Assembly: GCA_002269645.1 (NCBI GenBank) | Contig: NIVC01001895.1 | Span: 122,772-186,771 of the forward strand | From: Macrostomum lignano | Lineage: Eukaryota | Reading direction: 5' to 3' | Length of the DNA: 64,000 bases | Shown: in pieces, positions 5,227 through 59,329 of the stretch | How positions within the stretch are numbered: the stretch's first letter is position 1 | Layout of the letters: the number at the start of each line of letters is the position of its first letter | Program-made: the position numbers and the translations under genes | Notes under the pieces: model-generated | The model's input: the letters and a program-made list of their open reading frames with translations, nothing else | The model's database searches: none | What the model was told of the DNA's origin: nothing

Positions 5227-7287
5227 TTTCGCGAGTCAAATTCAACTATATTGAATTTCAACTGACCTTTCTGGTTTATCAAATTCGGTTTCTTGCGCAA
5301 CAGATCGATAATATTTAAGAGTCGAAAGCGATTTAAAAAGTAATTCCGTACTTTCACCCTGCATATATTGCGAGCATGTGCTTGGACATAAAATAGAATA
5401 CTAATAAATAAAGGTTTGCAGCTTCTGCAGCGGCTATTTGTCTATGTGTGAAAGTACGGCATTCTGAGCTTCTTGTGATGCTGGTGCTTGTCTATGGCTA
5501 GGACCAAAAAAATCGAGCTTCTGGCGATCCTGTTATGTTATTCATCCATGGTCAAAACCTAAAGTGCCATAGACAAAATCATGGTGGAGACTTTCGGTTA
5601 ACAGTAGAAAGACCATGGGGGTGTATTTCAAATACACACATTTTTCTTTTGTCTGGATCTCCGAGAATATTCAACCAATTGCCATCAAAATACAGAACAC
5701 GGGCTAAAATTTTCCGCTCTATTCGACGAAGCAACTCTGAGAATCACGAAAAATCGGCATCGTTGAGATATTCAACGATTCTCCTCGGGGTGTCCGGTGG
5801 CAAAAACCACCAACATTGGCAAATTTTTTCTGTTCACAAAATCTCATCTTGAAACCACGTCGGCTCAGGAAGCTATGCATATTAGTCGTAAAGGCCTTTC
5901 TTCTCAGCATCCCAGGAACCAGGGTCCCCTTCATCACTGTCTGGAGCATCGGCGGCGACCGTCAGGACCTTCAAAAAAAGCATCCGATCGGCATCGCAGA
6001 GACGGCTGCGTTCCCAAAACTGAAATGGAAGAATCCTCTTCTGCATTCAGCGTTCAGTCAGCAGACATAATCGGTGAATGAAATGGACGACGGCGACCCT
6101 CTAGGTTGACCTGTAGACATACAAGCGACCTTCGGGACCTTCAACGGAGTGCCACCTTGCGGCCCCGACTAACTGGCATCCCCAACATCGTGAATTTTCT
6201 GTCAAGGCACCAAACCAGGCATGTCTGCATGTTATACAATGGTCCTGCACCATGTTCAGCATTCAGCTCTATCTGGACGACCTCCGGCACCCTCAACGGA
6301 GTGCCACCACGCGACCCTGACGAGCGAACACCCCCAACATCGTAATCTGTAACTCTCCAATTTAATATGGTGGAAAAGCATTGTATAATATGCAAACATG
6401 CCTGGTTTGGTGCCTTGATAGAAAGAGCAGGATGTTGGCGTTAGCGGTGTCAGCTCATCGGGGCCGCGTGGTGGCACTCCGTTGAAGGTCCCGAAGGTCG
6501 CTTGTATGTCTACAGGTCAACCTAGAGGGTCGCCATCATCCATTTCATTCACCGATTATGTCTGCTAACTGAATGTTGCATGCAGAAAAGGATTCTTCCG
6601 TTTCAGTTTTGGAAACGCAGCCGTCTCTGCGATGCCGATCGGATGCTTTTGTTGAAGGTCGTGACGGTCGCCGCCGATGCTCCAGACGGTGATGAAGGGG
6701 ACCCCACCCTGGTTCCTGGGATGCTGAGAAGAAAAGCCTCTCCGACAGATGGACCCAGATTATTGAGCCAATATGGATTCACCATAAAGGTTTATACAGT
6801 GTAGTGTTGGTTGTCCTTGCCACCAGTGTCTTCGACAAGAATCGTTGAATATCTCGACGATGCTGACGTCGGATGACTTTGAAAGTTAATTCGTTGGAAA
6901 GGGGGGGGGAAATTTTGATCCAAATGGTGGACTTTTACGAAAATCGGTTATTCGGTTTGCGAGCTATGGTGAAATTGATTGTGTGTATTTGTAATACACC
7001 CCCATGGTCTTTCCCCATGGGGAAAATAGCGTGGTCTTTCTACTGTTGGGCTGCGCCCTTCCAGTGTGTATGTACTCGTACTTTTGTTTTCAGTTTTCAT
7101 GCCACCCCGCCCCGTCCCCCGTCTCGCGCCCGGGCCAGGGTTTGTGAGAGGCGTAAGTCTCAACCCTGGCCTAGCCCTTTGCACCCAGCCCCCGGCCCAA
7201 TCTCTGTCCAATCTGGGTGCCGACCCTACCCCCCCCCCTTCCTCGTTGCCCGCCTCACCCTGGGGCTGCTCGTATTGGCTGGCTGGT

Positions 7288-8321
7288 CGCTCGTAGTGGC
7301 GCGAGCGATTTTTGATCACTGGATTGCGCACTTTGGTTGTCCTGAATTTCTAGTCACCGATAAGGGCACCAATTTTGAGTCGGCTTTGATGAAGCAGTTG
7401 TGTCGGTTGCTTGCCGTTAAGAAATGCAGAACGTCCTCCTATCACCCGATGGCTGATGGTCAGGCTGAGAGTTTCAATAAGACGTTGAAGTCAATGATCA
7501 AGTGCAGGATGAGTGAGTCGGTGGGCGAAGGAGACTGGGAGGATCTGATCCACCCGTCTCTCATGGCGTACCGTAGCAGCGTTCACAGAGGCACGGGGTA
7601 CACCCCGTACTACATGCTGTACGCCAGGGAGATGCGGCTTCCAGTGGACATTGGAACCTTGCCTGAGTCCATTCCTGCCAGTGCTCCGGCGTATGTTCAG
7701 TCATTAGGTAATAGTCTGGCTGAGGCTCATTCGCAGGTGCGGACCAACCTGCAGCAGTACCAGAGGAAACAGAAAGTGCTGTACGACTCAAGGGTGCGAG
7801 GCCCGGCCATAGAAGTTGGGGATGCCGTCCTAGAATACTCGCCTGCGCTGCAGGCAGGGGAGGCAGCCAAGTTCCATTGCAATTGGAAGGGGCCGGCGAA
7901 GGTGTTAGAGAAGATATCCGATTTGAATTACCGGGTAAAGCACGCCAATAGGGGAAAGAGCAAAATAGTGCATTATAATAATTTGCGAAAAGTATCCGAG
8001 CGGCCTGAGCAGTTCAGGTTGATGAATAGGCATACGGCAGTGCAGCGCCGGTCGGCGCATCCGCCTGAGCCGGCAGGGTGCAGACAGGAGCCCGCGGGGC
8101 CGGCGACTAAAGAGCCGGAACTTGAGGAGGAGGAGGAGTTTTACTCGTATGTGGTGCCACCAGTTGCCGTTGGGCCTCGGCATGGGATAGTAGGGCCGGG
8201 AACGCCAGTTGCACCATGCGCACCGGTGGCTCCAGCGGCGCCAGCCGTGTCTCCGCGCAGACTGCGCGAGCGTCGGGGTGTGCCCCCAGCGTATTACGGG
8301 AATCCGGTATTGTATCGTTAA
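7288..8321 (+). pseudogene. Retroviral-type integrase C-terminal remnant (pol) with GPY/F motif
   Basis: FGCPEFLVTDKGTNFES (second D), YHPMADGQAESFNKTLK (E) and WKGPAKVLEKISDLNYRV (GPY/F). The N-terminal zinc finger and first catalytic D are removed by the deletion. Confidence 0.88.
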
Positions 8322-8661
8322 TTCGCAGTGGGCTCACAAGGCGGTCGTCATAAATTGATTTTTAATATGCACTTGTATTAATGCCTCCACGCTGTTGTCT
8401 ATGGTAGAAAGCCTAAAATAACCTAAAATGAAAAAAAATGATACAACCCCAAAGCACAAAAAAATTCATAAAATGGAACGCATGAAAAGCACATAAAAAA
8501 ACATTAAATGTATTAAAATTACAAAATATGCTAGGCAAGAAGCGTTCTCAATCGTATTGTAAAGTAAACATGTCATGGGATGGGTCAGGCCAGGGTCACA
8601 GTTGCTAGTCCGCAAGGCATAGGTAGTGATTGGGTTTAAATGTCATCATTGCAGGAGGACC

Positions 8662-9612
8662 ATGTCGTCGCCAACGACACCGACTGATTTGTATGGCGTG
8701 TTAGGCGTGGGTCGGACTGCTAACTCTGCGGAGATTGAGGCAGCGTGTAGTCGTCTGTACTCAAAGCGGCCCCGCGTCTGTCCTGCCGAGGTAGAGTCTC
8801 CGGAGTCTCAGCGAGACGTGATGGCGATGTGCGTTTTATCTGACCCAGTGTTTCGGGAAGTATACGATCGGGTTGGAGAGGCAGCGTGTCAAGGGGTGTT
8901 AAAGTACGCCTACTTTTTCAATCCTCCCCCTGACGTTGAGTTGCCCGAGCAGGTCAGGTTAGCTTTGGCTAGTCTTAAGGGAAGCGCCGCAGGGGAAGCT
9001 CCAGTTCACGCGGAGATCCCAGCCGAGTTATTGGCTCCGGCTGCGCTTGCTGAGTGTAGGCGGCTGAGGGGTGCGCTGCTGGCGCGGTTGAGGGCTGGGG
9101 ATAGTGAAGGAGCTTGCCTGGTGGTTCAGGAGGTGGCGAGGTTTCTTGATGGGGCTGGTGTGAGTGTGCCTGAGCAGTTGTCTAGATTCTTAGCAGTGTC
9201 TGTGTCGTTTCTGTGCAATCAGTATGGGCGGAAGAGAGGTTCTGGTGGTGGTTCCGGGAGGTGTCGGAGGGTCCCGCCTTCGGTGCTGCAGGCGGCGTTT
9301 GAGTGCGTGTTGTTGGCTGTGCGGGGTTTTGAGCTGTGTGAGTTGGGGGGTCCCTTGTTGGGGAGGCTCCGGGGTCTGTCTCTCTTAGTGGATCCTGGCC
9401 TCGCGCGGCGCCCGGAGGAGGGGAGTGACGGGCCGCACCTTTCGCAGACTCCGCTGACGGCCCAGCGCGACTTGGCGACCGAAGAGTTAACGGGTGTCGA
9501 CCCCGAGCAAGTACGACCGGCCGACACGGTCCAGGAGGTCTCCCCCGTGACGACCCGAATCAGCGCAAGGTCAGCTCGGCTAAGCGTCTCGTCGATGCAA
9601 AGGCATACCTAA
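8662..9612 (+). CDS. LTR-element accessory ORF with N-terminal J-domain-like (DnaJ) fold lacking HPD
   Basis: TDLYGVLGVGRTANSAEIEAACSRL...CVLSDPVFREVYDRVGE matches J-domain helices (DxYxxLGV...AYxVLSDPxKRxxYDxxG), with RPR at the HPD position. ATG 8662 is preceded by an acceptor-like CATTGCAG at 8647-8654. Confidence 0.6.
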   Translation: MSSPTTPTDLYGVLGVGRTANSAEIEAACSRLYSKRPRVCPAEVESPESQRDVMAMCVLSDPVFREVYDRVGEAACQGVLKYAYFFNPPPDVELPEQVRLALASLKGSAAGEAPVHAEIPAELLAPAALAECRRLRGALLARLRAGDSEGACLVVQEVARFLDGAGVSVPEQLSRFLAVSVSFLCNQYGRKRGSGGGSGRCRRVPPSVLQAAFECVLLAVRGFELCELGGPLLGRLRGLSLLVDPGLARRPEEGSDGPHLSQTPLTAQRDLATEELTGVDPEQVRPADTVQEVSPVTTRISARSARLSVSSMQRHT

Positions 9613-10337
9613 CGAGGCTGGGCCGGTCGATTCAGCCCGAGGACCTTCGTGGCGTGCGTCGATGTCTAGCGGCTGTAAACTCGCCGTACTGCCTGCGTCT
9701 AGAATGTCCCGTTGTCCGACCACTGCTGCAAGACCGACGGATCGTGTTCGCCCTGGGCCTGAAGGCCAGTGCTGCACCGTGGTGGCCATCGCTGCGAGAC
9801 GATGTACGACGATTTCTAGCGGGTAGCTGGCCGCGTGTCGTGGCGGTCGGCGAAGTCGAGCTCAATTGGGACGCTGAGAGGTCGCAGCGCCAGGACCAGT
9901 TAACGGCGGCGATGGAGCAGTTCTTGCTTGCCAAGGAGTTCGGCCTGCCGGTTTTGTTCCGAGTTGAAGGCGGCGAACCTGCCTGGGCGGTCGCCCTAGG
10001 ATTCCTCCGGCAGCCGGAGTTTCAAGCGATGAGCGTCATGCTGGCCGAGGACCTGGACTTGCCGGAGGCCGTCGAGGCCGCGCTGGTGAGCAAGTGCCAC
10101 GGGGTCTTCTTCGAGGTGTCCGCTCGGTGCCGAGGATCCCCGCGAGCGGTCCAACGGGCTAAGCGTCTCCCGCGGCAGCGCCTGCTAGTGACATCGGCCG
10201 CACCGTTTGGTGGAGACCCCAAGGACCCGACAGCCATCAAGTTCGTGCCGGAAGCCCTAGCGGACAGTGAATGTGATCGCAGGTACTGGACTCGACTGTT
10301 TGCGACCAACTGTAGTAGATTTTTTGGCCGATTGTAG
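9429..10337 (+). CDS. TatD-family TIM-barrel protein with degenerate metal ligands (pseudo-nuclease), inside the LTR element
   Basis: Frame open from 9429. LVDAKAYL (cf. LIDTHCHL), FALGLKA (GxHP), VVAVGEVELN (VVAIGEIGLD), LAKEFGLPVLFR (LAKELxLPVxxH), LPRQRLLVTSAAPF (IPLDRLLxETDAPY), TNCSRFF (TENARRLF). There is no ATG before the domain; it overlaps the J ORF in the -1 frame over 9429-9612. Confidence 0.72.
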   Translation, partial: RAAPFADSADGPARLGDRRVNGCRPRASTTGRHGPGGLPRDDPNQRKVSSAKRLVDAKAYLTRLGRSIQPEDLRGVRRCLAAVNSPYCLRLECPVVRPLLQDRRIVFALGLKASAAPWWPSLRDDVRRFLAGSWPRVVAVGEVELNWDAERSQRQDQLTAAMEQFLLAKEFGLPVLFRVEGGEPAWAVALGFLRQPEFQAMSVMLAEDLDLPEAVEAALVSKCHGVFFEVSARCRGSPRAVQRAKRLPRQRLLVTSAAPFGGDPKDPTAIKFVPEALADSECDRRYWTRLFATNCSRFFGRL

Positions 10338-10577
10338 AGTAGAATTGCGTTCTTAAGCCCGTTTTCAATTTTTGCGTACGCAATAGTTTGTGTCCCGTTT
10401 TCATTTTTTCGTTTTTGTTTTTTGTAATGCCGGCGATATCCACGCGTCGCGTCAAAGTTTTTCTGTTATTTTTCGGCCGTCGTTTTTTGAATTAACTTTT
10501 TTTCAGACTTGCTTGTTCATGCGTTGCTTTTTGCTTGACATCCCCTTTCTCCTCTTCTTTTTCTTGGAGGGGGAGGA

Positions 10578-11286
10578 TGTTGGGCTGCGCCCTTCCAGTG
10601 TGTATGTACTCGTACTTTTGTTTTCAGTTTTCATGCCACCCCGCCACGTCCCCCGTCTCGCGCCCGGGCCAGGGTTTGTGAGAGGCGTAAGTCTCAACCC
10701 TGGCCTAGCCCTTTGCACCCAGCCCCCGGCCCAATCTCTGTCCAATCTGGGTGCCGACCCTACCCCCCCCTTCCTCGTTGCCCGCCTCACCCTGGGGCTG
10801 CTCGTATTGGCTGGCTGGTTGATAAGCCGGCTGGGCCCCAGGGTTTGGCTCGCCCTCTCCAGTCTGCCCCACCCCTTCCCCCTTTTTTGTGTATTATTTA
10901 AATGCTAGCCCTGAGCGGGCTGCGCTCCACGTTGGCTCTCTATTGGTGTCCGCTTCGTTCTTACTGTTTTTGCGTTCAACGGCGTACCTCTGCCTTCGCG
11001 TGCCAATACTGCTTCGGGCCAATAAACGCTTCGTTAGTAACTCGATATATCAAGAGGAGGTGAGCTCGAGCTTTCGTTCTTCTGGGTTGCCGCGTGGGGC
11101 CGGGATCTGCAGGGACCTGGGAACGGTGAACTCTCGCCGATCCCAGGGTGTTCGGTCAGGCGAACTCTCGCCGAACCGAGCGAGACAGGGTAGGAATAGC
11201 CGGGGTGAGGGCTGGGACCGGGGTGTCTCAGGCGGGGAGGGCCCGAACCTTGACCCGTCCAGCGGCCATTAGGCCGAGACACAACA
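10578..11286 (+). repeat. Intact 3' LTR (709 bp)
   Basis: TG...CA termini, preceded by the PPT and followed by TSD CTAC; the first 244 bp are duplicated at 7044-7287. Confidence 0.9.
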
Positions 11287-11950
11287 CTACTGTTAACCGC
11301 ATAGGTTTATTGCTTTAACTACTTTTAAAATTTTAAAATCTGGATTGGAAAGAATGCTAGAGAACTAACTAACTACCTAACTAAAGAGCTTTTTTGATGA
11401 GTTGCCCTTATATAATCCTCAGAGATATTTAACTCTTGTAAGAGGTAAATACTTGAAGACTTGAATTACTTGAGGTAAACACGTATTGTTAAATCACATC
11501 ACCAGAGGTAAACTACTTGCAGTAATATTATAAACAATAATTGAACTCGAAAATAAGAAGAAACAAATTCATTTTAAAGTTTGTAAGTGTTATCTGATTA
11601 TACTCAACTGTGCAGAGTATATTTGTTATACAAAGAAAAAGCCTAAAAAGTTTAAAAAAGTTTTCTATTGCTATGTAAATCTGTGAAAAAAACTTGGCTT
11701 ATGTACACTGCACTGCATGTTTAACAAGGACCACAGATACAAGAAGAGCTATAGATATTCACTCGCAAAAAAGAGGTCGACTACACGGTCCACTCTTTTC
11801 AGTAGATATTAGCGTTTGTGCCTAAAATAAATTGTCTTACCGACTCCAGACTGCCAGGCATAAGCGAGTAAGAGAAAATAGGCTGATAAGACAGTTTGGC
11901 TTTCCCCTTGCCCGGTTGCGGCCGACTCTGACCTCTTTTCCTTACTGCTC

Positions 11951-17061: not shown

Positions 17062-17634
17062 TTAGCCAGCGCCAGACAGCGCAGCGGGCAGCAGTTTGGC
17101 GCCATTGATTCCGTGAACGGACACTCGACCCGGACGCACCATGAGGCCGTGTTGCTGCTGACAGGTGAAGTATCTCTTGCCGAGGACTCGGCCGTCGTTT
17201 CGACCCAGCGGTTTTCGTAGTTCAACGCCCAGCCAAACACCGTCGGCAAAGTGCACCCGGCCGATGAAGCGGACGGTGCCCATCAGATTGCCGCAGAGCA
17301 CCTGAAAAGATAAATTAGCAATCCATTTTATTTTATTAGCATCTGAGCGATAGATTAGCAATCCATTCTACTCTATTAGGTTAAGAGATATAGATTAGGA
17401 ATCTATTTTATTTTATTATATTCGAGCGATAGATTAGCAATCCATTTTTATTTTATTAGGTTCGGAAAGATAGATTAGCAATCTATTATATTTTATTAGG
17501 TTCGGAGACAGATTAGCAATCCATTCTATTTTATTAGGTTCGGAGACAGATTAGCAATCCAATTACACATTCATGCATTACAATACTGCAGTCACTATAC
17601 CTGTAATCCTTCGCGCAGAACAAGTGTTGCTTGT

Positions 17635-17696
<62 letters not shown>

Positions 17697-20600
17697 AGTG
17701 GCCGTGGCCTCTGCCTGCCTACCGGCGCACCTGTGCAGCCTGGCAGCAGACGCGAACACTCCGTGACCCTGCGGACAGTGGAAGTACCTTCGCCCCTCCA
17801 CGGATCCGTCATTTCTGCCCACCGCGTTGTCCAGCTCCACCCCGTACCAAACTCCCGGGGCGAAGTGGCACTCGCCAACGAACCGGACGGTGCCTCGACG
17901 TTGGCCGGCTACGATCACTCGGTCGCCGAGGGCGAAACTGTGCCGGGTTCGAACCCGGGCCTCCACGCCGCTGACGTCGATTGCGCCGCGATGGACCCGG
18001 GTGAAGCCGGACACGCGGCTCATGGGGACCAGCACCTGGCCGGGTCGGACACGGGGTCGGACACTTAATTCCTGGACTCTTGATTCCTGATAACCAATTC
18101 TCGGACACCATTCCTGAACACTTCATTCCCGGACTCTCCTTTCCTGGACACTTCATTCTTAGACACTCCATCTTTAAACACTTCATTCCCGGACACTTCA
18201 TTCCCGGACACTTCATTCCCGGACACTTCATTCCCGGACGCTTCATTCCTCCAGACATTTAATTCCCGGACAGTGCGGACACTTCATTCCCGGACACTTC
18301 ATTCCCAGAATCTTCATTCCCAGAATCTTCATTCCCAGACTCTCCATTTCTTCGGACGCTTTATTCCTGGAAATTTAATTCCCGGACATTTAATTCCCGG
18401 ACACTTAATTCCCGGACACTTCATTCCTGGACACTTCATTCCTACGGACACTTCATTCCCGGACACTTCATTCCTAGACACTTCATTCCTAGACACTTTA
18501 TCTTCAGACCCTCCATTCCCGGACACTCACCCCCCGGCCAGCCGGACACTGGAAGTATCTGACTCCGGACACGCAACCGTCGTGTCGGCCAGCCTGCGGC
18601 GTCTCGAGTTCAACTCCGGCCCAGACGCCTGGCGCGAATTCCACGGGGCCCCAGTAGCGGAGGGTGCCGGGCCGGGACCCAGCAACCAGGACTCGGTCGC
18701 CCAAGTTGGAAGGCGGCTGATCGGCTTGCTGCTGCGGTCTCTGCTGCGGCTGCCGCTGTGACTGCTGCTGCTGCTTCTGCAGTGCAGCCGCCTGATGTGT
18801 GATCAGAAGCGATAATTAGGATGATTCTTAGGGGATAATTGGGAAGATTCTTAGGTTATAATTAGGAAGATTCTTAGGGAATAATTATGGTGATACTTAG
18901 GGGATAATTAGGGAGATTCTTAGGGGGTAATTAGGAAGATTCTTAGGGGATAATTAAGGGTGATTGCGCCTTAATTTTTGTCCTTATTGTCATTAGGGGA
19001 CAATTAGGAAGATTATTAGGGGATAATTATAGGAAGATTCTTAGGGGATAATTAGGAAGCATCTTAGGGGATAATTAGGAAGCATCTTAGGGATAATTAG
19101 GAAGCATCTTAGGGGACAATTAGGAAGTTTATTAGGGGATAATTATAGAAAGATTCTTAGGGGATAATTAGGAAGCATCTTAGGGGATAATTAGGAAGCA
19201 TCTTAGGGGACAATTAGGAAGATTCTTAGGGGATAATTAGGGAAATTGTAAGGGGATAATTAGAGAGATACTTGGGGGTTATTTAGAGAGATTCTTAAGG
19301 GATAATTAGGGCGATTCTTAGAGAACAGTTAGGAAGATTTTTAGGGGATAATTAGGAATATACTTAGAGGATGATTAGGAATATTATTAGGGGACAATTA
19401 GGAAGATTCTTAGGAAATAATTAGGAAGATTCTTAGGCGATGAGTAGGGAGACTCTTAGAGGATAATTGGGGGTAGAATCTTAGGGGATAACAAGGGGAT
19501 AACTAGGGAGATTCTTAATACATCCAACTAAACGTGCTTCCCAGTGAAAGAAGAGGAGTGAAAGGCAAAGGCAAGGGAAGTCCAACCTCTTCAAACGCTG
19601 ACGAAGCCACCGAAGCGGTTGATGAAGCGGACGACAGCGGAGCTGCAGCCGCGGCAGCCGGCACCGAAGCGGTGGACGAAGCGGACAGCCGAGGCGGTCG
19701 CTCAGGCCGACTGCCAGCCAGTAAAGTGAGCAGTCTCGATCGGATCTCTCGATTCTCAGCCGAAGAGTTCGAGTTGAACAAACCAGAGGTCAGTTGAGGC
19801 AGGCAGTCGACGGGACGCCGGAGCAACTCGTCTGTGGCTGCCAGAGCTGCCTGACCTGCGCTGGAGACCAGCAGGCGGGCGCTGCCTTCGCTCAGGTGTG
19901 CAGCGGCCAGGTGCAGCGGGGTGGCGTCTTCGAACTCGGTGCATCTGATTGTGAAAGATGGCATGAATTGTTAAAGAGTCGGTTCTGAGTTCGAACTCTA
20001 TTATGACCGTTTACTATGAGTATGTTTGTACTTTAGTCTATGACCGGTTTCTATGAGTATGTTTCTACTTTAGTCTATGACCGGTTCTATGAGTATGTTT
20101 GTACTTTAGTCTATGACCGGTTTCTATGAGTATGTTTGTACTTTAGTCTATGACCGGTTTACTATGAGTTTGATTGTACTTAGTCTATGAAAGGTTTCTA
20201 TGAGTTTGTTTGTACTTTAGTCTATGGCTGGTTTTTGAGTTTGTACTTTAGTCTATAGCTGTTTTCTGAGTTTATACTTTAGTCTATGGCTGTTTTCTGA
20301 GTTTGTATTTTAGTCTATGGCTGGTTTTTAAGCTTGTACTTTAGTCTATGGCTGGTGTTTGAGTTTGTACTTTAGTCTATGGCTGGTTTTTAAGCTTGTA
20401 CTTTAGTCTATGGCTGGTTTCTGAGTTTGTAATTTAGTCTATGGCTGGTTTCTGAGTTTGTAATTTAGTCTATGGCTGGTTCTGAGTTTGTACTTTAGTC
20501 TATGGCTGGTTTCTGAGTTTGTACTTTAGTCTATGGCTGGTTTTTTAGTTTGTACTTTAGTCTATGGCTGTTTTCTAAGTTTGTACTTTAGTCTATGGCT

Positions 20601-23491: not shown

Positions 23492-23563
23492 TTTCTAGAA
23501 ATTTCTTGAATCAATTAAATGACACACAATTTCGAGAAGTTTCCGTCGGACAGTCTATATAAA
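23492..23563 (+). promoter_or_regulatory. Heat-shock promoter: two HSEs and a TATA box
   Basis: TTCtaGAAatTTCttGAA (23493-23510), TTCgaGAAgtTTC (23531-23543) and TATATAAA (23556-23563), about 115 bp upstream of the sHSP ATG. Confidence 0.88.
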
Positions 23564-23678
23564 CAAGACAGGCTGCTTCTTGAACAGACAAGCTCCTAAA
23601 TCAAGAAAGCGAGAGAAAAACACAAGCAAAAGCAAAGCAAGCAAACCTAACAAACCAGCAGACATTGTACAAGCGACA

Positions 23679-24476
23679 ATGTCGCTCTGGATCTCCCCCA
23701 CGAACGTGTTCACGCCGTTCTCGCACGCGCTGCCGCTTGTGACAGCCATGAGCGAGCTGGACGACTGGCTGACGCCTGAGTACGACCCACTGGCGCATCT
23801 GTGGTGTCACCGAGGTCCGAAGCGACTGCGCCACTGGTCCCGGACTGTCGACCTTCGCGGCTTCTCGCCCAAGGACGTGTCGGTGAAGCGAGAGGACCGA
23901 AAGGTGCGCGTCGTGGCTCGACTCGAGAACGGCGACGACGTGACGGAGGTGAAGCGGACGGTGGACCTGCCGGAGGAGGTGGACGCTGAGAAGCTGAGCA
24001 GCGGCTTCACCCAGGACGGCATGCTGGTTCTGAAGGCGCCGTTCAAGGAGCAGCAGCGGCAGCAGCGGCAGGGTGACTCGGTGTGGGACGAGCTGCGCGT
24101 CCTGCTGCGAGGCGACTTGCAGTCCGGCCAGCTGGTGGAGGCCGACGACGGCACCAAGCGGTTCAAGGCGGAGCTGTCGGTGCGCGAGTTCAAGCCGGAC
24201 GAGATTCGCATCAAGCAGCAGGGCGACCGCGTCCGAGTCGAGGCTGAGCACAAGGACGAGTCGAACGGGCAGCGGATCCACAAGCGGCTGGAGAGAGAGT
24301 TCCAGCTGCCCGCCGGCACCAAGCTGGATCAGGTGGCCAGCAAGCTCAGCCAGGACGGCCGGCTGTGCATCGAGGCGCCGTTCGAGGCTCTGCCAGCCAA
24401 GCAGCCAACGCAGATCAAGGACGTTCCCATGGAGATTGAGAACGCCGATGATCAGAGCAGGGCGATGGGCTGCTAA
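23679..24476 (+). CDS. Small heat-shock protein with two alpha-crystallin domains (flatworm p40/Tsp36 type), intronless, 265 aa
   Basis: Two HSP20 repeats: DLRGFSPKDVSVK...LPEEVDAEKLSSGFTQDGMLVLKAP and SVREFKPDEIRIK...REFQLPAGTKLDQVASKLSQDGRLCIEAP, plus a C-terminal IxI-like motif DVPMEI. ATG at 23679. Confidence 0.93.
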   Translation: MSLWISPTNVFTPFSHALPLVTAMSELDDWLTPEYDPLAHLWCHRGPKRLRHWSRTVDLRGFSPKDVSVKREDRKVRVVARLENGDDVTEVKRTVDLPEEVDAEKLSSGFTQDGMLVLKAPFKEQQRQQRQGDSVWDELRVLLRGDLQSGQLVEADDGTKRFKAELSVREFKPDEIRIKQQGDRVRVEAEHKDESNGQRIHKRLEREFQLPAGTKLDQVASKLSQDGRLCIEAPFEALPAKQPTQIKDVPMEIENADDQSRAMGC

Positions 24477-24944
24477 GAATTGCTCCAAGAATTGTTTTGT
24501 TTGTTTTCAAGATTGGTTAAACTTTTGACACGGTTTCTTGTACATCATTCACTTTCAGGCAGTACTAATTGTTAGCTCTTTAGGCCTGAGTACACTTAAT
24601 GCGGCTTACTCAAGTTAAGCGTACAACTCATTAATTATAGTTTACACGAATTGACATTCGTTTATCTTTTGACTCTTTCATCATTTAAACAATTTTTTGA
24701 ACTTTTTTAACTAGGAAAAAAGTGGTAGCACACATCCTCTTTCTGCATGCTACATGCTGTAATTTTACGTTAGGGAAAACACCATTACAATAGAAAAGGT
24801 GATTGAGCAAAACTTTGTCACATAGAACAAACATAGACATAGTCAAACGATGGAGCAATAGGCTTGTACTTTTACCATAGAATGTGTCGGAAAAGTTTTT
24901 TATCTGAAGGGCCAGATATAGACTTTAGCGCATAGCTTTGGGCC

Positions 24945-29621: not shown

Positions 29622-32600
29622 TCACCCATTAAAAGTGCAGCTAGTCTCATCCGTGTCTGTGCTAGCTCTGGACGGGCTGGGGGTGAAGCCCACGGCGCAA
29701 GAGCACACCCGGTTCCTGGTGCGCTTCTTCCTTTTCCAGAGGACAACGCAGTTGCTTTTGTACCAATCGGACCAGTTGCTCCACGAGTTCCAGCTGCACC
29801 AGCCCATAAACCTGGCATCGGACTGGGAGGCCTCCGTGGACGGCGTGGCGACAGAGCTGGTGATGCAACTGCAGGTCCGATCTCTGGACCTCTGTTGGTT
29901 CACATTGCAGCCTGCAATGTTTAATATTGATGAGGTTGTAACCCTGGAGTCCTTGAGCAAGACACTTAACTCTGCATTGCTTCAGTTCACCCAGCTGTAA
30001 AATGGGTGCCAGCATTAGCTGGGGTAATTGAGGGTGTGTGGCGACTCTCCAGTCCTTGGACTGAACAGCCGTACGCAGCTTTCAGATGCGCCGCGCAATA
30101 GCTGCGGCTGAGCTGTCAGTTGCACATCACAACTTTTTAGCTGGGTCTACTACGTGTAGAATTCGTTCTCAAGCTCACCTGTAGTCCAGGTGCTCCAGCC
30201 CTGCCACGCGCACCAGCCCATGTATCTGGAGTCAGTTTGAGAAGCCTCAGTGGACGGCGTGGCGACGGCAGTGGTGACGCAGCTGCAGCTCCTCACCCTG
30301 GTGCGCTGCTGGTTCGAGTTGCAGCCTGGAGAAAAGTGCATGGTAGCAGTTTGAGCACTTCACTGGTGCTTGATGACTGGCACTATATTCATGAATATTC
30401 ATGAAGCATGAATGCACTTTTTAATTGATACTGGCAAATACTTCAACAAAGCTCGAGTTGCTATGAAAGCAGTTCATCTTCCCTCATGTTCTCTTGAGCC
30501 TCATGAGCTGTTAAAACTGAACTCTGTAGCAAACATGCGAGTCTAAATTCAATGAGCTTTAAAAATGCTTCACAAAAGTTTCATAATTTTTTTGAAAGGA
30601 TGTGCTACAGATGTCCGTTTGAAGCAATATGGAATAATTGACACTTTCTACAAGTCTCAAACAATTGAGAACAATAAAATGGAACCCAGAAAGCAGTTAA
30701 TGTTCTTAAAAGATGGTTTAAGAAGTTCAAACAAGTGTCATTTGTAAAGACCAATACAAGTTCAAAAAATGACAGGTACTTTGAGGACTTCATTCTCAAG
30801 CTAACCTGTAGTCCAAGTGCTCCAGCCCTGCCACTGGCACCAGCCCATGTATCTGGAGTCAGTTTGAGAAGCCTCAGTGGACGGCGTGGCGACGGCGGTG
30901 GTGACGCAGCTGCAGCTCCTCACCCTGGTGCGCTGCTGGTTCGAGTTGCAGCCTGGAGAAATGTTTTTGAGCACTTGTGAGCATTATCTGCATGGTACAT
31001 ACCTAAGAAGTCATCCACACTCGGTGAAACTGAAGTGCCATCGTTTACTTTTTTTAGCCAAAAGCAAGTCTGTTGTGAGCAAAAACTCTAAATAAGGGCC
31101 TCCTGACTCCTGAATCTACATGTAATTTATCGATATTTATACAGTAGACAATGCTTATAATGTGCTTCTTGTCTTGGGCGAGGGCTACCTTTAAGAGCCA
31201 GAGAAAGCCAGCCACTTCAGTCTAGCACTGACAATTATTTGCCAAACTCACTTCAAAGCAAGGAATTTGTCGCTAGGCTCACCTGTAGTCCAGGTGCTCC
31301 AGTCCTGCCACTCGCACCAGCCCATGAACCTGGCGGCAGTCTGAGAAGCCTCAGTTGACGGAGTCGCTACCGGAGCGATGGGGCAGCTGCAGTTCCTCTC
31401 CCTGGTGCGTTGCTGGTTTGAGTTGCAACCTGGAATATTGCGCATGTTTTCAGCGAAGTTCTTTTTTCGGGAGCTCACTACCAAAGTGTTTGGTCACAGA
31501 GAGCTCACTACCAAAGTGTTTGGTCACAGAGAGCTCACTACCAAAGTGTTTGGTCACAGAGAGCTCACTAGCAAAGTGTTTGGTCACAGAGAGCTCACTA
31601 CCGAAGTGTTTGGTCACAGAGAGCTCACTACCAAAGTGTTTGGTCACAGAGAGCTCACTACCAAAGTGTTTGGTCACAGAGAGCTCACTAGCAAAGTGTT
31701 TGGTCACAGAGAGCTCACTACCGAACTGTTTGGTCACAGATGTTCAAAACGGCTCTGAAGCCTCACCTGAGCTCCAGGTCGCCCAGTCCTCCCAGGCGCA
31801 CCAGCCGATGAAGCGCTGCTCGTTCTGCGAGTCGCCTCCGTCGGCTGTGCGGTCCTCGCAGTTGGCCCCGGCGGCAGGAGCCTGCGGACTCGGGCATCGG
31901 CAGCTTCGACCGCGGAGGCGTTGAGCGGCGTGGCAGGCGGCGCTCCAGGAGGTCCACGAGCTCCAGGGACACCAGCCGCCGCTCACTGCGGACCGGAGAT
32001 TCACAGATTGAGCTCAATAATCAAGTCATCAAGCCAAAGAATTGATAATCAAGTCATCAAGCCATATAATCAATAATCAAGTCATCAAGCCAAAGAATTG
32101 ATAATCAAGTCATCAAGCCATAGAATCAATAATCAAGTCATCAAGCCATAGAATCAATAATCAAGTCATCAAGCCATAGAATTAATAATCAAGTCATCAA
32201 GCCATAGAATTAATAATCAAGTCATCAAGCCATAGAATTAATAATCAAGTCATCAAGCCATCGAATCAATAATCAAGTCATCAAGCCATAGAATAAATAA
32301 TCAAGTCATCAAGCCATAGAATCAATAATCAAGTCATCATGCCATAGAATCAATAATCAAGTCATCAAGCCATAGAATCAATAATCAAGTCATCAAGCCA
32401 TAGAATCAATAATCAAGTCATCAAGCCATAGAATCAATAATCAAGTCATCAAGCCATAGAATCAATAATCAAATCATCAAGCCATAGAATCAATAACCAA
32501 GTCATCAAGCCATAGAATCAATAATCAAGTCATCAAGCCATAGAATCAATAATCAAGTCATCAAGCCATAGAATAAATAATCAAGTCATCAAGCCATAGA

Positions 32601-33291
32601 ATAATAATCAAGTCATCAAGCCATCGAATCAATAATCAAGTCATCAAGCCATTGAATCAATAATCAAGTCATCAAGCCATAGAATCAATAATCAAGTCAT
32701 CAAGCCATAGAATCAATAATCAAGTCATCATGCCATAGAATCAATAATCAAGTCATCAAGCCATAGAATCAATAATCAAGTCATCAAGCCATAGAATCAA
32801 TAATCAAGTCATCAAGCCATAGAATCAATAATCAAGTCATCAAGCCATAGAATCAATAATCAAGTCATCAAGCCATAGAATCAATAATCAAGTCATGCAG
32901 CCATGGAGTTTTTCGTAGATTTTGAGAGCTCTTATTCGAGCTCGGACCGCTGCTTACCTCGACGCCTGTTGCTCAGCGCCAGCACCCGACACCCCGACGG
33001 CATCGCGGAGGCGTCGGCCGTGTCACCGAGAAGCCGGCAGTCTCCGGCGGACTCGTCGCGAGGGCACCAGGCGACCCCGACGCAGCTGCGGGACGCGGCC
33101 TCGCACTCGGACGCGCACTCGATGTCCGAGCGGGCGGCCACAAGCGCGGCCGGCTGTCCGGACTCCGCGGCCTTGCCGCTGTCCCAGTGCGCCTGGCCTG
33201 GTGAGTACAGGTACTGATCGGGCTCGCTGCAGGCGCCTGGCGCCGTCAGCTGCAGCAGTAGTGCGGCCGTGGCAACCGTTGCTAGGGTCAT
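29622..33291 (-). CDS. Secreted PAN/apple + thrombospondin type-1 repeat protein, copy A (6 exons, ~427 aa)
   Basis: Exons 33291-32958 (signal peptide + PAN-like SDIECASECEAASRSCVGVAWC...CRLL), 31985-31767, 31429-31283, 30952-30806, 30325-30179 (three 147-nt exons), 29911-29622. All introns are phase 1 GT-AG. WxxWxxW...C...RxRxRxCxC motifs are present. Confidence 0.88.
29941..30127 (+). mobile_element. 5'-truncated copy of the CORE-like SINE
   Basis: Matches ~1199-1389; lies in the last intron of PAN-TSP1 copy A and is absent from the corresponding intron of copy B. Confidence 0.85.
31470..31740. repeat. 30-bp intronic minisatellite, 9 copies
   Basis: GAGCTCACTACCAAAGTGTTTGGTCACAGA; reverse complement of the array at 38010-38820. 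Confidence 0.95.
32015..32900. repeat. 28-bp intronic minisatellite AATCAATAATCAAGTCATCAAGCCATAG, ~31 copies
   Basis: Intron 1 of copy A; reverse complement of 37275-37712. Confidence 0.95.
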
Positions 33292-33629
33292 TGTTAACTC
33301 TTTTCAGTCTAAAAGCTGTTCTCATGTGTTTGCAGAATTTTTCCCGGCTGCATGTGAAATCAGCAGCGTTTAAGTAAAGCGAGGGGAGGTGCTGAATCCT
33401 CTCTAGGCTTGGGTTCCTCCGTCTCCAGCCAGTCAGGAAAGGGATGCTTGGCGAATGGCAAGGATGGCTTGGCTGGGTCGATCATTAAAATCAGAGACTG
33501 CCTGGAATGAAGGAAATAGCCCAAGTTTCCCTGAATCGTGGGAGTAAAGGAGGGCTGCAGTCTTGGCGTAAAATCTTTTGGATTCAACTTTTCTTTTCTT
33601 TGTATGAATGACGGCATGAAATGAGGGAG

Positions 33630-34145
33630 GGAGATGAAGAAGAGAGAAGGGAGATGAGGGAGAGAGGAAGGGAGATGAGGGAGAGAGGGAGGGAGATGAG
33701 GTAGAGAGGAAGGGAGATGAGGGAGAGAGGGAGGGAGATGAGGGAGAGAGGGAGGGAGATGAGGTAGAGAGGAAGGGAGATGAGGGAGAGAGGGAGGGAG
33801 ATGAGGTAGAGAGGAAGGGAGATGAGGGAGAGAGGGAGGGAGATGAGGGAGAGAGGAAGGGAGATGAGGTAGAGAGGAAGGGAGATGAGGGAGAGAGGGA
33901 GGGAGATGAGGGAGAGAGGGAGGGAGATGAGGGAGAGAGGGAGGGAGATGAGGGAGAGAGGGAGGGAGATGAGGGAGAGAGGGAGGGAGATGAGGTAGAG
34001 AGGAAGGGAGATGAGGGAGAGAGGGAGGGAGATGAGGGAGAGAGGGAGGGAGATGAGGGAGAGAGGAAGGGAGATGAGGGAGAGAGGGAGGGAGATGAGG
34101 GAGAGAGGGAGGGAGATGAGGGAGAGAGGAAGGGAGATGAGGGAG
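33630..34145. repeat. 21-bp purine minisatellite GGGAGATGAGGGAGAGAGG(A/G)A
   Basis: About 24 copies. Confidence 0.93.
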
Positions 34146-35273
34146 GTGTTTCAACGTGACGACAATACAACGTGATGTCATTCACGGCATGACTCATTTA
34201 AAATTTTTGTTCTCAATCTAATTTGAGCGATGTCTATCGTGCACGCATCATATCAAGTGAGACCTACGCGTCTCCACTCTGCAGCTTAAGAGAGGTGGAG
34301 AGGCATATGCTGAAAATTTGGATAAGATGGTCTTGAGGTGGCGTCAACTTGTTAGACAGTTTCAAGTTTTGCTCACAGAAAAAACTTCCTTTTCATCCTT
34401 GTTTGCTTTAATTAGCATCAAAAAAAGTTTCGCAACAATTGTGTAGCTCTCAGATGCCTTTGAAATTGTTCGTTTCTAAGAAAACTGTTGAGCCTACTCA
34501 AAATGTCGCCTTCTGCATCTGCCAAAAAGTAATTGTTCAACAGCGAAAAAGAATTGCCTTTTGTCCGCATTGATTCATGACACACATGTGTAAGACGAGT
34601 TGTTTGTCTTGTCTCCTATTTTCGAGTGTCAGCCATCTGATGTTGCTGTCCTCAACCGTCAAGGACACGTACCCAGCGTCAGGTCAACACACAGAATGTC
34701 GCCCTCTGCTTGCCGGACGACATCGAGGCTGTCATTTTGTGCAGTCTGAGGTGACCGCGTTGTGAGGTCGTGAGGACGGCGTTGTTCCGGGCGGTGGTGG
34801 AGACTTGCCTTCAAGATCGGCGACCAAGGCGGCTGAGCGTCGTGCAGAATCGTGCAGTTCTGTAATCACTAACAGACACCGTTTTTTGTTGATTTTGTCT
34901 CCGTTTTAACTGGCAGATGCGTAAAGACAGTTTTGAAATCTTGAAAAGAGACCAAAAAAATTCCTGACAGATGCATACATTAAAAATAAAAAATCAGCAG
35001 AGTTGAATGTATTAGTGTATATTTAAATACGCATACAGCGTACGGAAAATGTGGTAAAACAGCGTGTTCATAAATTATCTGGAGTAAAATAGTAAAGTAC
35101 TCGTCAATACTGATAGGAATAAACTGCCAAGTTTTAATGTGCATTGACTGGATTAAAAATGGTTTCGGGAAAGCTCCATAGCATGCTCGTCCAATATTGG
35201 ACACACTGTTCTCAGTCACTCGCGGGGGCACACCAATACAGTTACAGCCCCCCAAACAGTTCGTGACTAGATC

Positions 35274-36052
35274 CTACTCGGCAGCCTTTTGGATCTCCAT
35301 GGGAACGTCCTTGATCTGCGGCGGCTGCTTGGCTGGCGGAGCCTCGAACGGCGCCTCGATGCACAGCTGGCCGTCCTGACTCAGCTTGCTGGCCACCTGA
35401 TCCAGCTTGGTGCCGGCGGGTAGCTGGAACTCTCTTTCCAGCCGCTTGTGGATCCGCTGCCCGTTCGACTCGTCCTTGTGCTCAGCCTCGACTCAGACGC
35501 GGTCGCCCTGCTGCTGGATGCGAATCTCGTCCAGCTTGAACTCGCGCACCGACAGCTCCGCCTTGAACCGCTTGGTGCCGTCGTCGGCCTCCACCAGCTG
35601 GCCGGACTGCAGGTCGCCTCGCAGCAGGCCGCGCAGCTCGTCCCACACCGAGTCACCCTGCCGCTGCTGCAGCTGCTGCTCCTTGAACGGCGCCTTCAGC
35701 ACCAGCATGCCGTCCTGGGTGAAGCCGCTGCTCAGCTTCTCAGCGTCCACCTCCTCCGGCAGGTCCACCGTCCGCTTCACCTCCGTCACGTCGTCGCCGT
35801 TCTCGAGTCGAGCCACGACGCGCACCTTTCGGTCCTGTCGCTTCACCGACACGTCCTTGGGCGAGAAGCCGCGAAGGTCGACAGTCCGGGACCAGTGGCG
35901 CGGTCGCTTCGGACCTCGGTGACACCACAGGTGCACCAGCGGGTCGTACTCAGGCGTCAGCCAGTCGTCCAGCTCGCTCATGGCTGTCACAAGCGGCAGC
36001 GCGTGCGAGAACAGCGTGAACACGTTCGAGAGCGACAGATCCAGAGCGACAT
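35274..36052 (-). pseudogene. Small HSP pseudogene (duplicate of 23679-24476)
   Basis: Near-identical to copy 1, but has a +2 frameshift after codon 5 (GGATCT-GTCGCTCT-CGAACG vs GGATCT-CCCCCA-CGAACG), a CGA>TGA nonsense at 35495-35493 in the second domain, a different C-terminus (MEIQKAAE*), and a ~150-bp promoter deletion. Confidence 0.85.
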
Positions 36053-36878
36053 TGTCGCTTGTAGAATGTCGGTTTGGTAGGTTTGCAAAGAAGAATTTTA
36101 TCAGTACAACACAAAAAATAGGGAAAAATGTTGACATTTCTACTATCAGTAAGCTAAACGAACTTGTTTGAATTTTTTAATACTGAACTATATTGAACTG
36201 TTCAATGTCTAACGTTCTAGAATACCGTTGAATTGCTTACGACAGATCATAAACACTTTTCTGGAGAAATTGACTTGTAGTTTCGATCCACGTAGGTTGT
36301 TGCCTACTTCTGAAATCACACATCATTGGAAGGATATACAGACAAACCATTTTGGATGCACAAGAATTTCCCACAGGAAGTTTTACCGCCGAGGTTTTCT
36401 TGCAGGGTTTTTACAGTCAAATCCAGTCTATAGACAGTGCTGGACTAGATTAGAACTTGCCTTGACTAGACATAAACTAGACTAGATTACAAATCCGATT
36501 GGAATTGACTTGGCACACCTGCCATATTTCCCACTTGATGATTGGTGGTTGCTATCCAAGAAAACAATGGTCACCCACTTCAATGCAGGACACTTGAATA
36601 CTTGAAATCGTATTAAAGACGCGATGTCACAGTTTCTGAAGTGTCTTGTAGCCAATCAATCAAAAGTCTATCTGTCAAATTTTTCATTTTACAAGCTGGT
36701 GAAAACCCTAACTGTCAGTGGATAAATGACCTCACCTCTCAATCATGGCGGGTAAATAGAGAACTCAATGAATAGAAATTAAGAATTCAAGTTTGCAACC
36801 TCCATTTCCTACTATAAAAAAAGGAAAACCAGATATTTATCTGCAAATCTTATACAATCGGCTAAGTTAGAGTTAGCA

Positions 36879-39800
36879 ATGACCCTAGCAACGGTTGCCA
36901 CGGCCGTACTGCTGCTGCAGCTGACGGCGCCAAGTGCCTGCAGCGAGCCCGATCAGTACCTGTACTCACCAGACCAGGCGCACTGGGACAGCGGCAAAGC
37001 CGCAGAGTCCGGACAGCCGGCCGCGCTGGTGACCGCCCGCTCGGACATCGAATGCGCGTCCGAGTGCGAGGCCGCGTCCCGCAGCTGCGTCGGGGTCGCC
37101 TGGTGCCCTCGCGACGAGTCCGCCGGAGACTGCCGGCTTCTCGGCGACACGGTAGACGCCTCCGCGATGCCGTCCGGGTGTCGGGTGCTGGCGCTGAGCA
37201 ACAGGCGTCGAGGTAAGCAGCGGTCCGAGCTCGAATAAGAGCTCTCAAAATTAACGAAAAACTCTATGGCTGCATGACTTGATTATTGATTCTATGGCTT
37301 GATGACTTGATTATTGATTCTATGGCTTGATGACTTGATTATTGATTCTATGGCTTGATGACTTGATTATTGATTCTATGGCTTGATGACTTGATTATTG
37401 ATTCTATGGCTTGATGACTTGATTATTGATTCTATGGCTTGATGACTTGATTATTGATTCTATGGCTTGAAGACTTGATTATTGATTCTATGGCTTGATG
37501 ACTTGATTATTGATTTTATGGCTTGATGACTTGATTATTGATTCTATGGCTTGATGACTTGATTATTGATTCTATGGCTTGATGACTTGATTATTTTTCT
37601 ATGGCTTTATGACTTGATTATTGATTCTATGGCTTGATGACTTGATTATTGATTCTATGGCTTGATGACTTGATTATTGATTCTATGGCTTGATGACTTG
37701 ATTATTGATTCCATGCCTGGGGAATTGATTATCGAGCTCAATCTGTGAATCTCCGGTCCGCAGTGAGTGGTGGCTGGTGTCCCTGGAGCTCGTGGACCTC
37801 CTGGAGCGCCGCCTGCCACGCCGCTCAACGCCTCCGCGGTCGAAGCTGCCGATGCCCGAGTCCGCAGGCTCCTGCCGCCGGGGCCAACTGCGAGGACCGC
37901 ACAGCCGACGGAGGCGACTCGCAGAACGAGCAGCGCTTCATCGGCTGGTGCGCCTGGGAGGACTGGGCGACCTGGAGCTCAGGTGAGGCTTCAGAGCCGT
38001 TTTGAACATCTGTGACCAAACAGTTCGGTAATGAGCTCTCTGTGACCAAACACTTTGCTAGTGAGCTCTCTGTGACCAAACACTTCAGTAGTGAGCTCTC
38101 TGTGACCAAACACTTTGGTAGTGAGCTCTCTGTGACCAAACACTTCGGTAGTGAGCTCTCTGTGACCAAACACTTTGGTAGTGAGCTCTCTGTGACCAAA
38201 CACTTTGGTAGTGAGCTCTCTGTGACCAAACACTTCCGTAGTGAGCTCTCTGTGACCAAACACTTCCGTAGTGAGCTCTCTGTGACCAAACACTTTGCTA
38301 GTGAGCTCTCTGTGACCAAACACTTTGCTAGTGACCTCTCTGTGACCAAACACTTTGCTAGTGAGCTCTCTGTGACCAAACACTTTGCTAGTGAGCTCTC
38401 TGTGACCAAACACTTTGCTAGTGACCTCTCTGTGACCAAACACTTTGGTAGTGAGCTCTCTGTGACCAAACACTTTGGTAGTGAGCTCTCTGTGACCAAA
38501 CACTTTGGTAGTGAGCTCTCTGTGACCAAACACTTCCGTAGTGAGCTCTCTGTGACCAAACACTTCCGTAGTGAGCTCTCTGTGACCAAACACTTTGCTA
38601 GTGAGCTCTCTGTGACCAAAAACTTTGCTAGTGAGCTCTCTGTGACCAAACACTTCGCTAGTGAGCTCTCTGTGACCAAACACTTCAGTAGTGAGCTCTC
38701 TGTGACCAAACACTTCGCTAGTGAGCTCTCTGTGACCAAACACTTCGCTAGTGAGCTCTCTGTGACCAAACACTTCAGTAGTGAGCTCTCTGTGACCAAA
38801 CACTTTGCTAGTGAGCTCCCGAAAAAAGAACTTCGCTGAAAACTTGCGCAACATTCCAGGTTGCAACTCGAACCAGCAACGCACCAGGGAGAGGAACTGC
38901 AGCTGCCCCATCGCTCCGGTAGCGACTCCGTCAACTGAGGCTTCTCAGACTGCCGCCAGGTTCATGGGCTGGTGCGAGTGGCAGGACTGGAGCACCTGGA
39001 CTACAGGTGAGCTTAGAGACAAATTCATTGCTTTGAAGTGAGTTTGGCAAATATTGTCAGTGCTAAACTGAAGTGGCTGGCTTTCTCTGGCTCTTAAAGG
39101 TAGCCCTCGCCCAAGACAAGAAGCACATTATAAGCATTGTCTACTGTATAAATATCGATAAATTACATGTAGATTCAGGAGTCAGGAGGCCCTTATTTAG
39201 AGTTTTTGCTCACAACAGACTTGCTTTTGGCTAAAAAAAGTAAACGATGGCACTTCAGTTTCACCGAGTGTGGATGACTTCTTAGGTATGTACCATGCAG
39301 ATAATGCTCACCAGTGCTCAAAAACATTTCTCCAGGCTGCAACTCGAACCAGCAGCGCACCAGGGTGAGGAGCTGCAGCTGCGTGACCACTGCCGTCGCC
39401 ACGCCGTCCACTGAGGCTTCTCAAACTGACTCCAGATACATGGGCTGGTGCGCGTGGCAGGGCTGGAGCACCTGGACTACAGGTGAGCTTGAGGATTGTT
39501 TGCGTAAAATGCCACAGTCAATCAGGGTTCGTTGTGTTTTCATTCGAATATCTTTTATTATTCACTGAGACAAGGGTTGAGCAACCTGCTAGAATTTTAC
39601 TAAATTGCTACTGCAGTACAAAGTAACAGAAAATTAAAAATTAAAAACGACTGGGTCTCGAATAAGGCCTTTGGTTTGATTTTGCGTTCGTTTACATTAA
39701 TATGGGGCTTGTATACGAAAATTTCGGTGTTGTGCAATTCATACTCATGAAAGCCAATTTTGAAGGCACAGGGAGTGTACATACCTGCAGCCTGCGACGA

Positions 39801-59194: not shown

Positions 59195-59329
59195 GTGCAA
59201 GCTGATATGGACCGCATTATTTCATTAAATATGTTTCTAAGAATAACATTTATCCTATTCCGTTCTCAATGATGTAATACTGCTCATTTCTAAGAATCAC
59301 AGTCACGTCTGTTTCTAAGAATTCGTTCC

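Follow-up and report, generated by a model that had tools for sequence, protein, structure and literature searches.

LTR retrotransposons with extra ORFs behind pol are already known, for example in bdelloid rotifers (PMC5408684; PMC6338049), where the elements Juno and Vesta carry a non-env ORF3 with a DEDDy exonuclease and a GDSL esterase (PMC5408684). In Drosophila gypsy, the env gene is expressed from a spliced subgenomic RNA (PMC4276936). J-like proteins that lack the HPD motif have been described in Plasmodium and other organisms (PMC10349383). For the flatworm Macrostomum lignano, 137 Ty3/Mdg4 LTR families with the domain order PR-RT-RH-IN have been reported (PMC12801592), and the families presented here are probably among them. 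The main text of that study does not mention DnaJ, TatD, ORF or splicing, and neither domain is mentioned for its elements.

The element considered here carries, behind pol, a gene (ORF3) with a J-like and a TatD-like part. In agreement with the sequence-only reading from which this work started, no description of such a cargo was found in the literature searched; Outside that search lie Repbase, GyDB and the LTR classification published for M. lignano in 2020, which may describe it.

Structure of the element and its surroundings

The window, a stretch of 64,000 nucleotides of M. lignano DNA, holds an LTR element of the Ty3/Gypsy type at positions 7044-11286, with CTAC on either flank (Table 1). 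The limits first drawn from the shared LTRs, the PPT and the CTAC TSD are borne out by the sequence, and so is the env-like position of the cargo: ORF3 sits between pol and the PPT. Full copies of this family (family A) are about 8.64 kb long and organized as gag-pol-ORF3. In the full copy L024, Pfam matches place gag before a pol ordered PR-RT-RNase H-IN, and only part of IN is retained in the window. The deletion in the window copy removed the splice donor, the PBS (present in full copies), gag, PR, RT and RNase H, and what is left of the 5′ LTR is now linked, across an 8-nt filler, to the distal half of the integrase core.

Table 1. Features of the element in the window (positions in the window)
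Feature	Position	Strand	Remark
5′ TSD CTAC	7040..7043		
5′ LTR, first 244 nt only	7044..7287	+	98.8% identity to 10578-10819
Filler at deletion junction, 8 nt	7288..7295	+	
pol remnant: second half of integrase core, GPY/F-type C-terminal domain, tail	7296..8321	+	Pfam Integrase_p58_C, E 4e-9; colinear with full copies
Predicted splice acceptor CAG, 7 nt 5′ of ORF3 ATG	8652..8654	+	conserved YAG; also in public gene models
ORF3 (558 aa in unbroken copies)	8662..10337	+	frameshift here near 9540-9546
J-like domain without HPD (aa 9-69) and clade-specific extension to ~aa 105	8686..8976	+	
Helical H domain with basic loop	9034..9411	+	common to all eight families; dN/dS 0.17
TatD-fold domain, 5/6 metal ligands substituted; Glu of GE retained (9852-9854)	9573..10337	+	
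PPT	10566..10577	+	
3′ LTR (709 bp, TG...CA) with a predicted splice donor at 11060	10578..11286	+	
3′ TSD CTAC	11287..11290		

Family A is very young. The two LTR ends are identifiable in 13 of 18 copies; each of these 13 has flanks of its own, a TSD of 4 bp and zero to two substitutions between its LTRs. No strict canonical HSE was matched in seven LTR stretches and five more from the families studied, so these elements have no link to the published heat-induced M. lignano families. No Rfam match was obtained.

On its left, the element is adjoined by nested inverted repeats (5500-7040), a possible fold-back or MITE insertion target. Reading of the translations elsewhere in the window points to an exon that encodes a CAP-Gly domain and, after it, poly-Gln (17600-18120, minus strand), to exons of an MTR4/SKIV2L2-type RNA helicase (50950-59200, plus strand), and to two inverted small heat-shock-protein-like genes, 96% identical (23500-24500, plus strand; 35280-36180, minus strand). 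The latter pair flanks an inverted duplication of ~9 kb (30800-39500).

ORF3 is a single fused gene

A DNA search of the same genome gave 19 full-length matches among 20 scored, and the 18 copies other than that of the window were retrieved. In 10 of the 19, a single frame of 558 aa begins at the J start and includes the TatD part, in the order J-like domain, helical H domain, TatD fold; L038 departs from the other unbroken copies at the very end only. The remaining nine, the window copy among them, are broken by single-base indels at varied places. The J and TatD parts are one gene and not the two ORFs of the initial reading: a frameshift of one base within a short homopolymer (~9540-9546) makes the window copy read as two overlapping frames, 8662-9612 and 9429-10337. 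The same break occurs in L022, L033 and the partial copy L082, and no indel is listed at this site in the contigs of four public runs. Several indels, pol included, in copies this young suggest homopolymer sequencing errors; a real sub-lineage carrying the shared frameshift is the alternative. The long stop-free frames that had been pointed out despite the deletion of pol are indeed there, but are uninformative on selection because the family is so young.

ORF3 has no transmembrane segment (maximum 19-aa hydropathy 1.49), from which it follows that it is not an env, and no signal peptide. Pfam finds only DnaJ and TatD in the ORF3 of L024, and no membrane fusion glycoprotein. The single-sequence fold prediction of the whole ORF3 has a pLDDT of 39. 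UniRef holds gene models labelled Macrostomum lignano that are 97-100% identical. In public databases, ORF3 is hidden inside chimeric host models (P0003, P0004, P0006), under the names 'J domain-containing protein' and 'ribonuclease H'.

Splice signals and selection

A YAG lies 0-16 nt before the J start in all eight J-bearing families, and within 2 nt in six of them. The chance of six in eight within 2 nt is 1e-5, or 1e-4 with families B and C merged, and that of all eight within 16 nt is 9e-4. Two further subfamilies have a YAG directly before the ATG, and the predicted acceptor of ORF3 is also the one used in P0003, P0004 and P0006. On the other side, GT(A/G)AG donors are present in the LTRs; in full copies, the predicted donor would serve from the 5′ LTR, and this 5′ donor is gone from the window copy. 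In families B, C, D and E the donor is preceded by an A. At the J start, B and C lack an ATG, which the A of the donor side and the TG of the acceptor side would form together. The start codon of Drosophila gypsy env is likewise formed by a splice junction. No splice joint was seen in the contigs of four runs over a 3.7-kb stretch with ORF3 and one LTR. From these signals, ORF3 is likely made from a spliced, env-like subgenomic mRNA.

Pairwise NG86 estimates on natural copies gave dN/dS values for ORF3 of 0.34 (CI 0.20-0.57), 0.29 and 0.32 in three subfamily pairs (p 1e-4 to 4e-6); the same analysis gave 0.15 for pol, and gag had the lowest ratio, 0.09. These ratios indicate that ORF3 is under purifying selection. 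Divided by part in one pair, the H domain (0.17) and the linker (0.22) are both significant, and J (0.65, CI 0.27-1.9) and TatD (0.47, CI 0.15-1.5) are not significant alone. Between families B and C, values of 0.09 for J and 0.14 for TatD were obtained, at a between-family dS near saturation. Conservation of the cargo across copies, as first supposed, agrees both with the single ORF3 in 10 of 19 copies and with a ratio of ~0.3 between subfamilies, not near 1.

It could still be argued that ORF3 is a neutral passenger, made of captured fragments decaying in place, as HPD and the TatD ligands are lost in the window family, and the gene is lost in family M and truncated in family E. A dN/dS well below 1 (p 1e-4 to 4e-6) largely refutes this explanation, the frames and splice signals are kept across families with pol only 44-54% identical, and the predicted fold is intact, so that a passenger is highly improbable.

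Related families and exchange of ORF3

Protein searches revealed ORF3 in four further families, at an identity of ~31%: B (L071/72), C (L069/70, L073-76), D (L077, 81, 83) and E (L078-80), whose pol, where present, is 51-54% identical to that of the window family; no pol occurs in the 10 kb retrieved around L069, L070 and L081. Further repeated hits, with ~20 copies each, were obtained with the J region of family B. In 18 of 20 J-hit stretches retrieved, pol or a pol remnant lies directly upstream; L172 is ambiguous, and L171 represents a DNAJB-type gene of the host. In families H, I, J, K and L (context in 2-4 copies each), there is an ORF3 of 283-328 aa directly behind pol, without TatD, composed of J, an acidic linker and the same helical domain. 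The core of J and H is common to eight families.

In the trees built on the integrase (22 rows) and on RT (21 rows, L190 dropped), A-E and M form one strongly supported clade (100/99, 99/100), and support for a monophyly of all J-bearing families is weak. As A-E and M are a single clade, TatD was fused once; the fold is a single gain, in one sub-clade. Family M, the sister of A, matches neither J nor H nor TatD. In its copies L178, L179, L183 and L185 (~5800-6500 in element orientation), ~1.2 kb lies behind pol, and the family has its own frame of ~200-250 codons, frameshifted between copies and unrelated to ORF3.

Two outgroup families are without a third gene, and no ORF3-type gene is found in families M, N and O, whose LTRs are 98.7-100% identical. 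Three independent insertions of family E, with LTRs 99.6-99.9% identical, are without J, H and half of TatD. Because M lacks the gene and partially deleted copies still transposed, ORF3 is accessory and not needed in cis. The family E copies L078-L080 and L191 are recent insertions with a near-complete pol and a common deletion that reaches from J across H to the middle of TatD.

The histories of pol and ORF3 differ. In B, D and E, pol is 92-93% identical, whereas identity falls to 57-70% in the TatD parts, where dS is saturated; the TatD of C2 is 95% identical to that of C/E-type copies, but the pol of C2 only 79% to that of E. Since the two identities disagree, ORF3 has been exchanged between backbones. 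L074-L076 represent one insertion in three contigs, with a C/E-like interior and an LTR without similarity to theirs, that is, an LTR replacement. The Logan protein P0005 is 51% identical and shows the same degenerate motifs. None of 46 candidates in the genome matches it closely, which hints at the family in another population or species.

J domain, helical domain and linker

The J fold of the first reading holds, with a homology that is weak in the window family (E 0.001) and strong in its sisters. In the window ORF3, the DnaJ match at aa 9-69 (E 0.0011) is below the Pfam cut-off, and the J region is 38-42% identical to that of family B. DnaJ E-values range from 1e-12 to 5e-18 across the sister families; those of B-E, which keep HPD, are 5e-13 to 5e-17. 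HPD, correctly reported as missing from the window, is present in seven of eight family representatives and missing only in the window family, and some decayed copies have variants of it. By this comparison, the loss is peculiar to the window family. Because HPD is intact in seven of eight, the ancestral ORF3 probably recruited Hsp70 and was not a dead decoy. A J domain is also a non-enzymatic co-chaperone module, so the cargo does not consist of the two enzymes once supposed.

The J and TatD domains originally reported are both real, but the helical domain between them had been overlooked. This H domain, ~110 aa long, is found in all eight J-bearing families, each time with a basic loop (5-8 K/R within 21-27 aa). 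It has no match to a Pfam family, atlas searches yielded nothing usable, and a PDB profile search returned designed helical proteins only. A LEDGF/TFIIS-N bundle was considered and rejected, with no hit to LEDGF or TFIIS-N in Pfam or PDB.

In family J, and in this family only, the linker contains a chromodomain (E 1.4e-12), nearest to Swi6/HP1 and with two of three cage aromatics. At L165:6798-7781 (family J, ~20 copies), this HP1/Swi6-like chromodomain is thus placed between J and H, outside the integrase, in an animal Gypsy element. A reader module next to a helical bundle is the architecture of a LEDGF-like integration tether, in which the H domain would bind integrase and the chromodomain or TatD fold would pick the target. 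However, the H profile reaches a probability of 0.5% against the host LEDGF-type domain (single-sequence template), Pfam and PDB offer no such relative, and no obvious consensus is seen among the 13 TSDs of family A; a tether is very unlikely.

In the diverged linkers of B, C, I, K, L193-L195 and L176, a hydrophobic-S-D-D-E motif forms a conserved island that resembles SUMO-interaction motifs such as those in Daxx and PML. Its search pattern was tuned after viewing the sequences, matches 3-14% of shuffled proteins, and does not recover families H and J or the variants with a W. The motif is gone from the window family. Modelling of a complex of SUMO with the linker gave 0.28, which speaks neither for nor against an interaction.

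TatD-fold domain

The TatD match in the window (Pfam, E 1.3e-5) is below the cut-off, and the whole barrel of the cargo aligns to bacterial TatDs. As 23 of the 30 rows of the fold alignment are bacterial TatDs, the barrel outcome (pLDDT 90, TM 0.75-0.80 to TatDs) is partly by construction; a profile from the cargo rows alone matches 12 PDB TatDs. The structure search places TatD-type hits on the first 14 Foldseek ranks, in line with the fold first assigned.

Of the TatD ligands given in PMC10085689, the window family retains only the Glu of GE, and the substitutions previously listed (HxH>KAY, GxHP>GLKA, H>R, H>A, ETD>VTS(A)A) match the full-barrel alignment. Families B and C also retain the first His (DAHAF, a remnant of D-x-H-x-H), and ligands are replaced in every TatD-bearing family examined. 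On sequence grounds, the domain is a catalytically stripped fold whose nuclease is probably dead. An acidic residue beside the second barrel His is invariant in eight cargo rows, so an altered binding site is possible. The pI of the cargo TatD is 8.9-10.1 in six of seven rows vs. 4.6-5.7 in 23 of 23 bacterial TatDs.

The cargo is of the class II type: the best scores were given by YjjV/YcfH (36 bits), vs. 23-24 bits for the human references compared, TATDN1/3, with bacterial matches that had been picked by the same profile. The host's own TATDN1/TATDN3 exons score lower than bacterial class II TatDs. No relative of the TatD part emerged from protein searches with a word index, a profile search found bacterial TatDs only (8000 candidates scored), and among longer proteins the only match is an M. 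lignano gene model.

These results bear on the proposal of catalytically dead decoys, which would block host TATDN nucleases or Hsp70. Its components of a conserved, selected cargo and a stripped TatD stand: the ligands are replaced in all TatD-bearing families examined, the J of the window family is without HPD, and host TATDN1 and TATDN3, the putative targets, are intact. On the other hand, there is one fused protein in place of two decoys, HPD is intact in seven of eight families, and a literature search found nothing tying TatD to retrotransposon restriction. The dominant-negative copy of a host TATDN is weakened, as bacterial class II TatDs outscore both TATDN1/3 and the host exons. Decoys are therefore unlikely.

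Proposed function of ORF3

The reading preferred here, on a tentative basis, is that of a nuclear Hsp70-recruiting adaptor directed against chromatin silencing and partly decayed in the window family. The LTR donor would splice to the acceptor before ORF3, as errantivirus env is made. The ancestral protein would then bring host Hsp70 to its target via HPD, like the polyomavirus T antigen, with the add-on modules as address labels: the chromodomain would address H3K9-methyl chromatin, the acidic SUMO-interaction-like motif may be a second label, and the basic, metal-less TatD barrel could hold nucleic acid without cutting it. Hsp70 would subsequently loosen the silencing complexes on the element. 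In the window family, without HPD and the SUMO-like motif, the protein may act via the H domain and the TatD fold alone; alternatively, this family may be part-way through losing its chaperone arm.

Another function, possible but rather doubtful, is that of a helper in the life cycle. Such a protein would act as a chaperone when particles assemble or uncoat, as an exporter of genomic RNA in its unspliced form, or, through the dead TatD barrel, as a shield for the 3′ ends of cDNA/RNA. Spliced elements would have to export their unspliced RNA, and the CERV protein of C. elegans Cer1, an exporter of unspliced genomic RNA, offers a parallel. The H loop and the TatD fold are both basic, J domains work on protein assemblies, and the cis dispensability of ORF3 fits complementation in trans. 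Nevertheless, the HP1-like chromodomain and the SUMO-like motif point to chromatin, and M, N and O, despite LTRs 98.7-100% identical, have no such gene.

The adaptor against silencing may be extended to a bolder proposal, more doubtful than the adaptor itself: a whole animal Gypsy clade would encode a modular Hsp70-recruiting anti-silencing protein, built of J and a new helical domain, with swappable address modules exchanged between families, as a retrotransposon counterpart of T antigen by which the heterochromatin of the element would be taken apart. To our knowledge, few transposon-encoded counter-defence proteins have been found in animals. The clade constitutes a natural comparison set, with or without the gene, HPD, the chromodomain or the dead TatD, and with many recent insertions. 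M. lignano is a transgenic, RNAi-tractable model, in which the commandeering of Hsp70 against silencing becomes testable. The clade further brings a new helical domain and a pseudo-enzyme of the TatD type.

Comparison with known systems

With errantivirus env, ORF3 shares its position; like env (PMC4276936), it is predicted here to be expressed from a spliced subgenomic RNA. Unlike env, it is without a signal peptide, a transmembrane segment or similarity to fusion proteins, and is predicted to be intracellular. Compared with class II TatDs (YcfH, YjjV, TATDN2/3), the cargo has the full TIM barrel, the D-x-H-x-H remnant and the catalytic Glu, but both barrel His, the C-terminal Asp and one or both His of HxH are replaced, and the domain is net basic and fused behind a J domain (PMC10085689).

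The T antigen of polyomaviruses likewise contains an HPD-bearing J domain of a genetic parasite, joined to other modules, and recruits Hsc70; it belongs to a DNA virus, and ORF3 has no helicase or origin-binding domain (PMC11720896). The loss of HPD in the window family resembles the type IV J-like proteins (PMC10349383). Among retrotransposons, the bdelloid ORF3s of Juno and Vesta are similar: they are also captured enzyme-fold genes between pol and the 3′ LTR, family-specific and modular, and two modules can be fused in one ORF3 as well (PMC5408684). The bdelloid proteins, however, keep their catalytic residues, as described in that study, whereas the ORF3 of M. lignano is a stripped TatD on a core of J and a helical domain.
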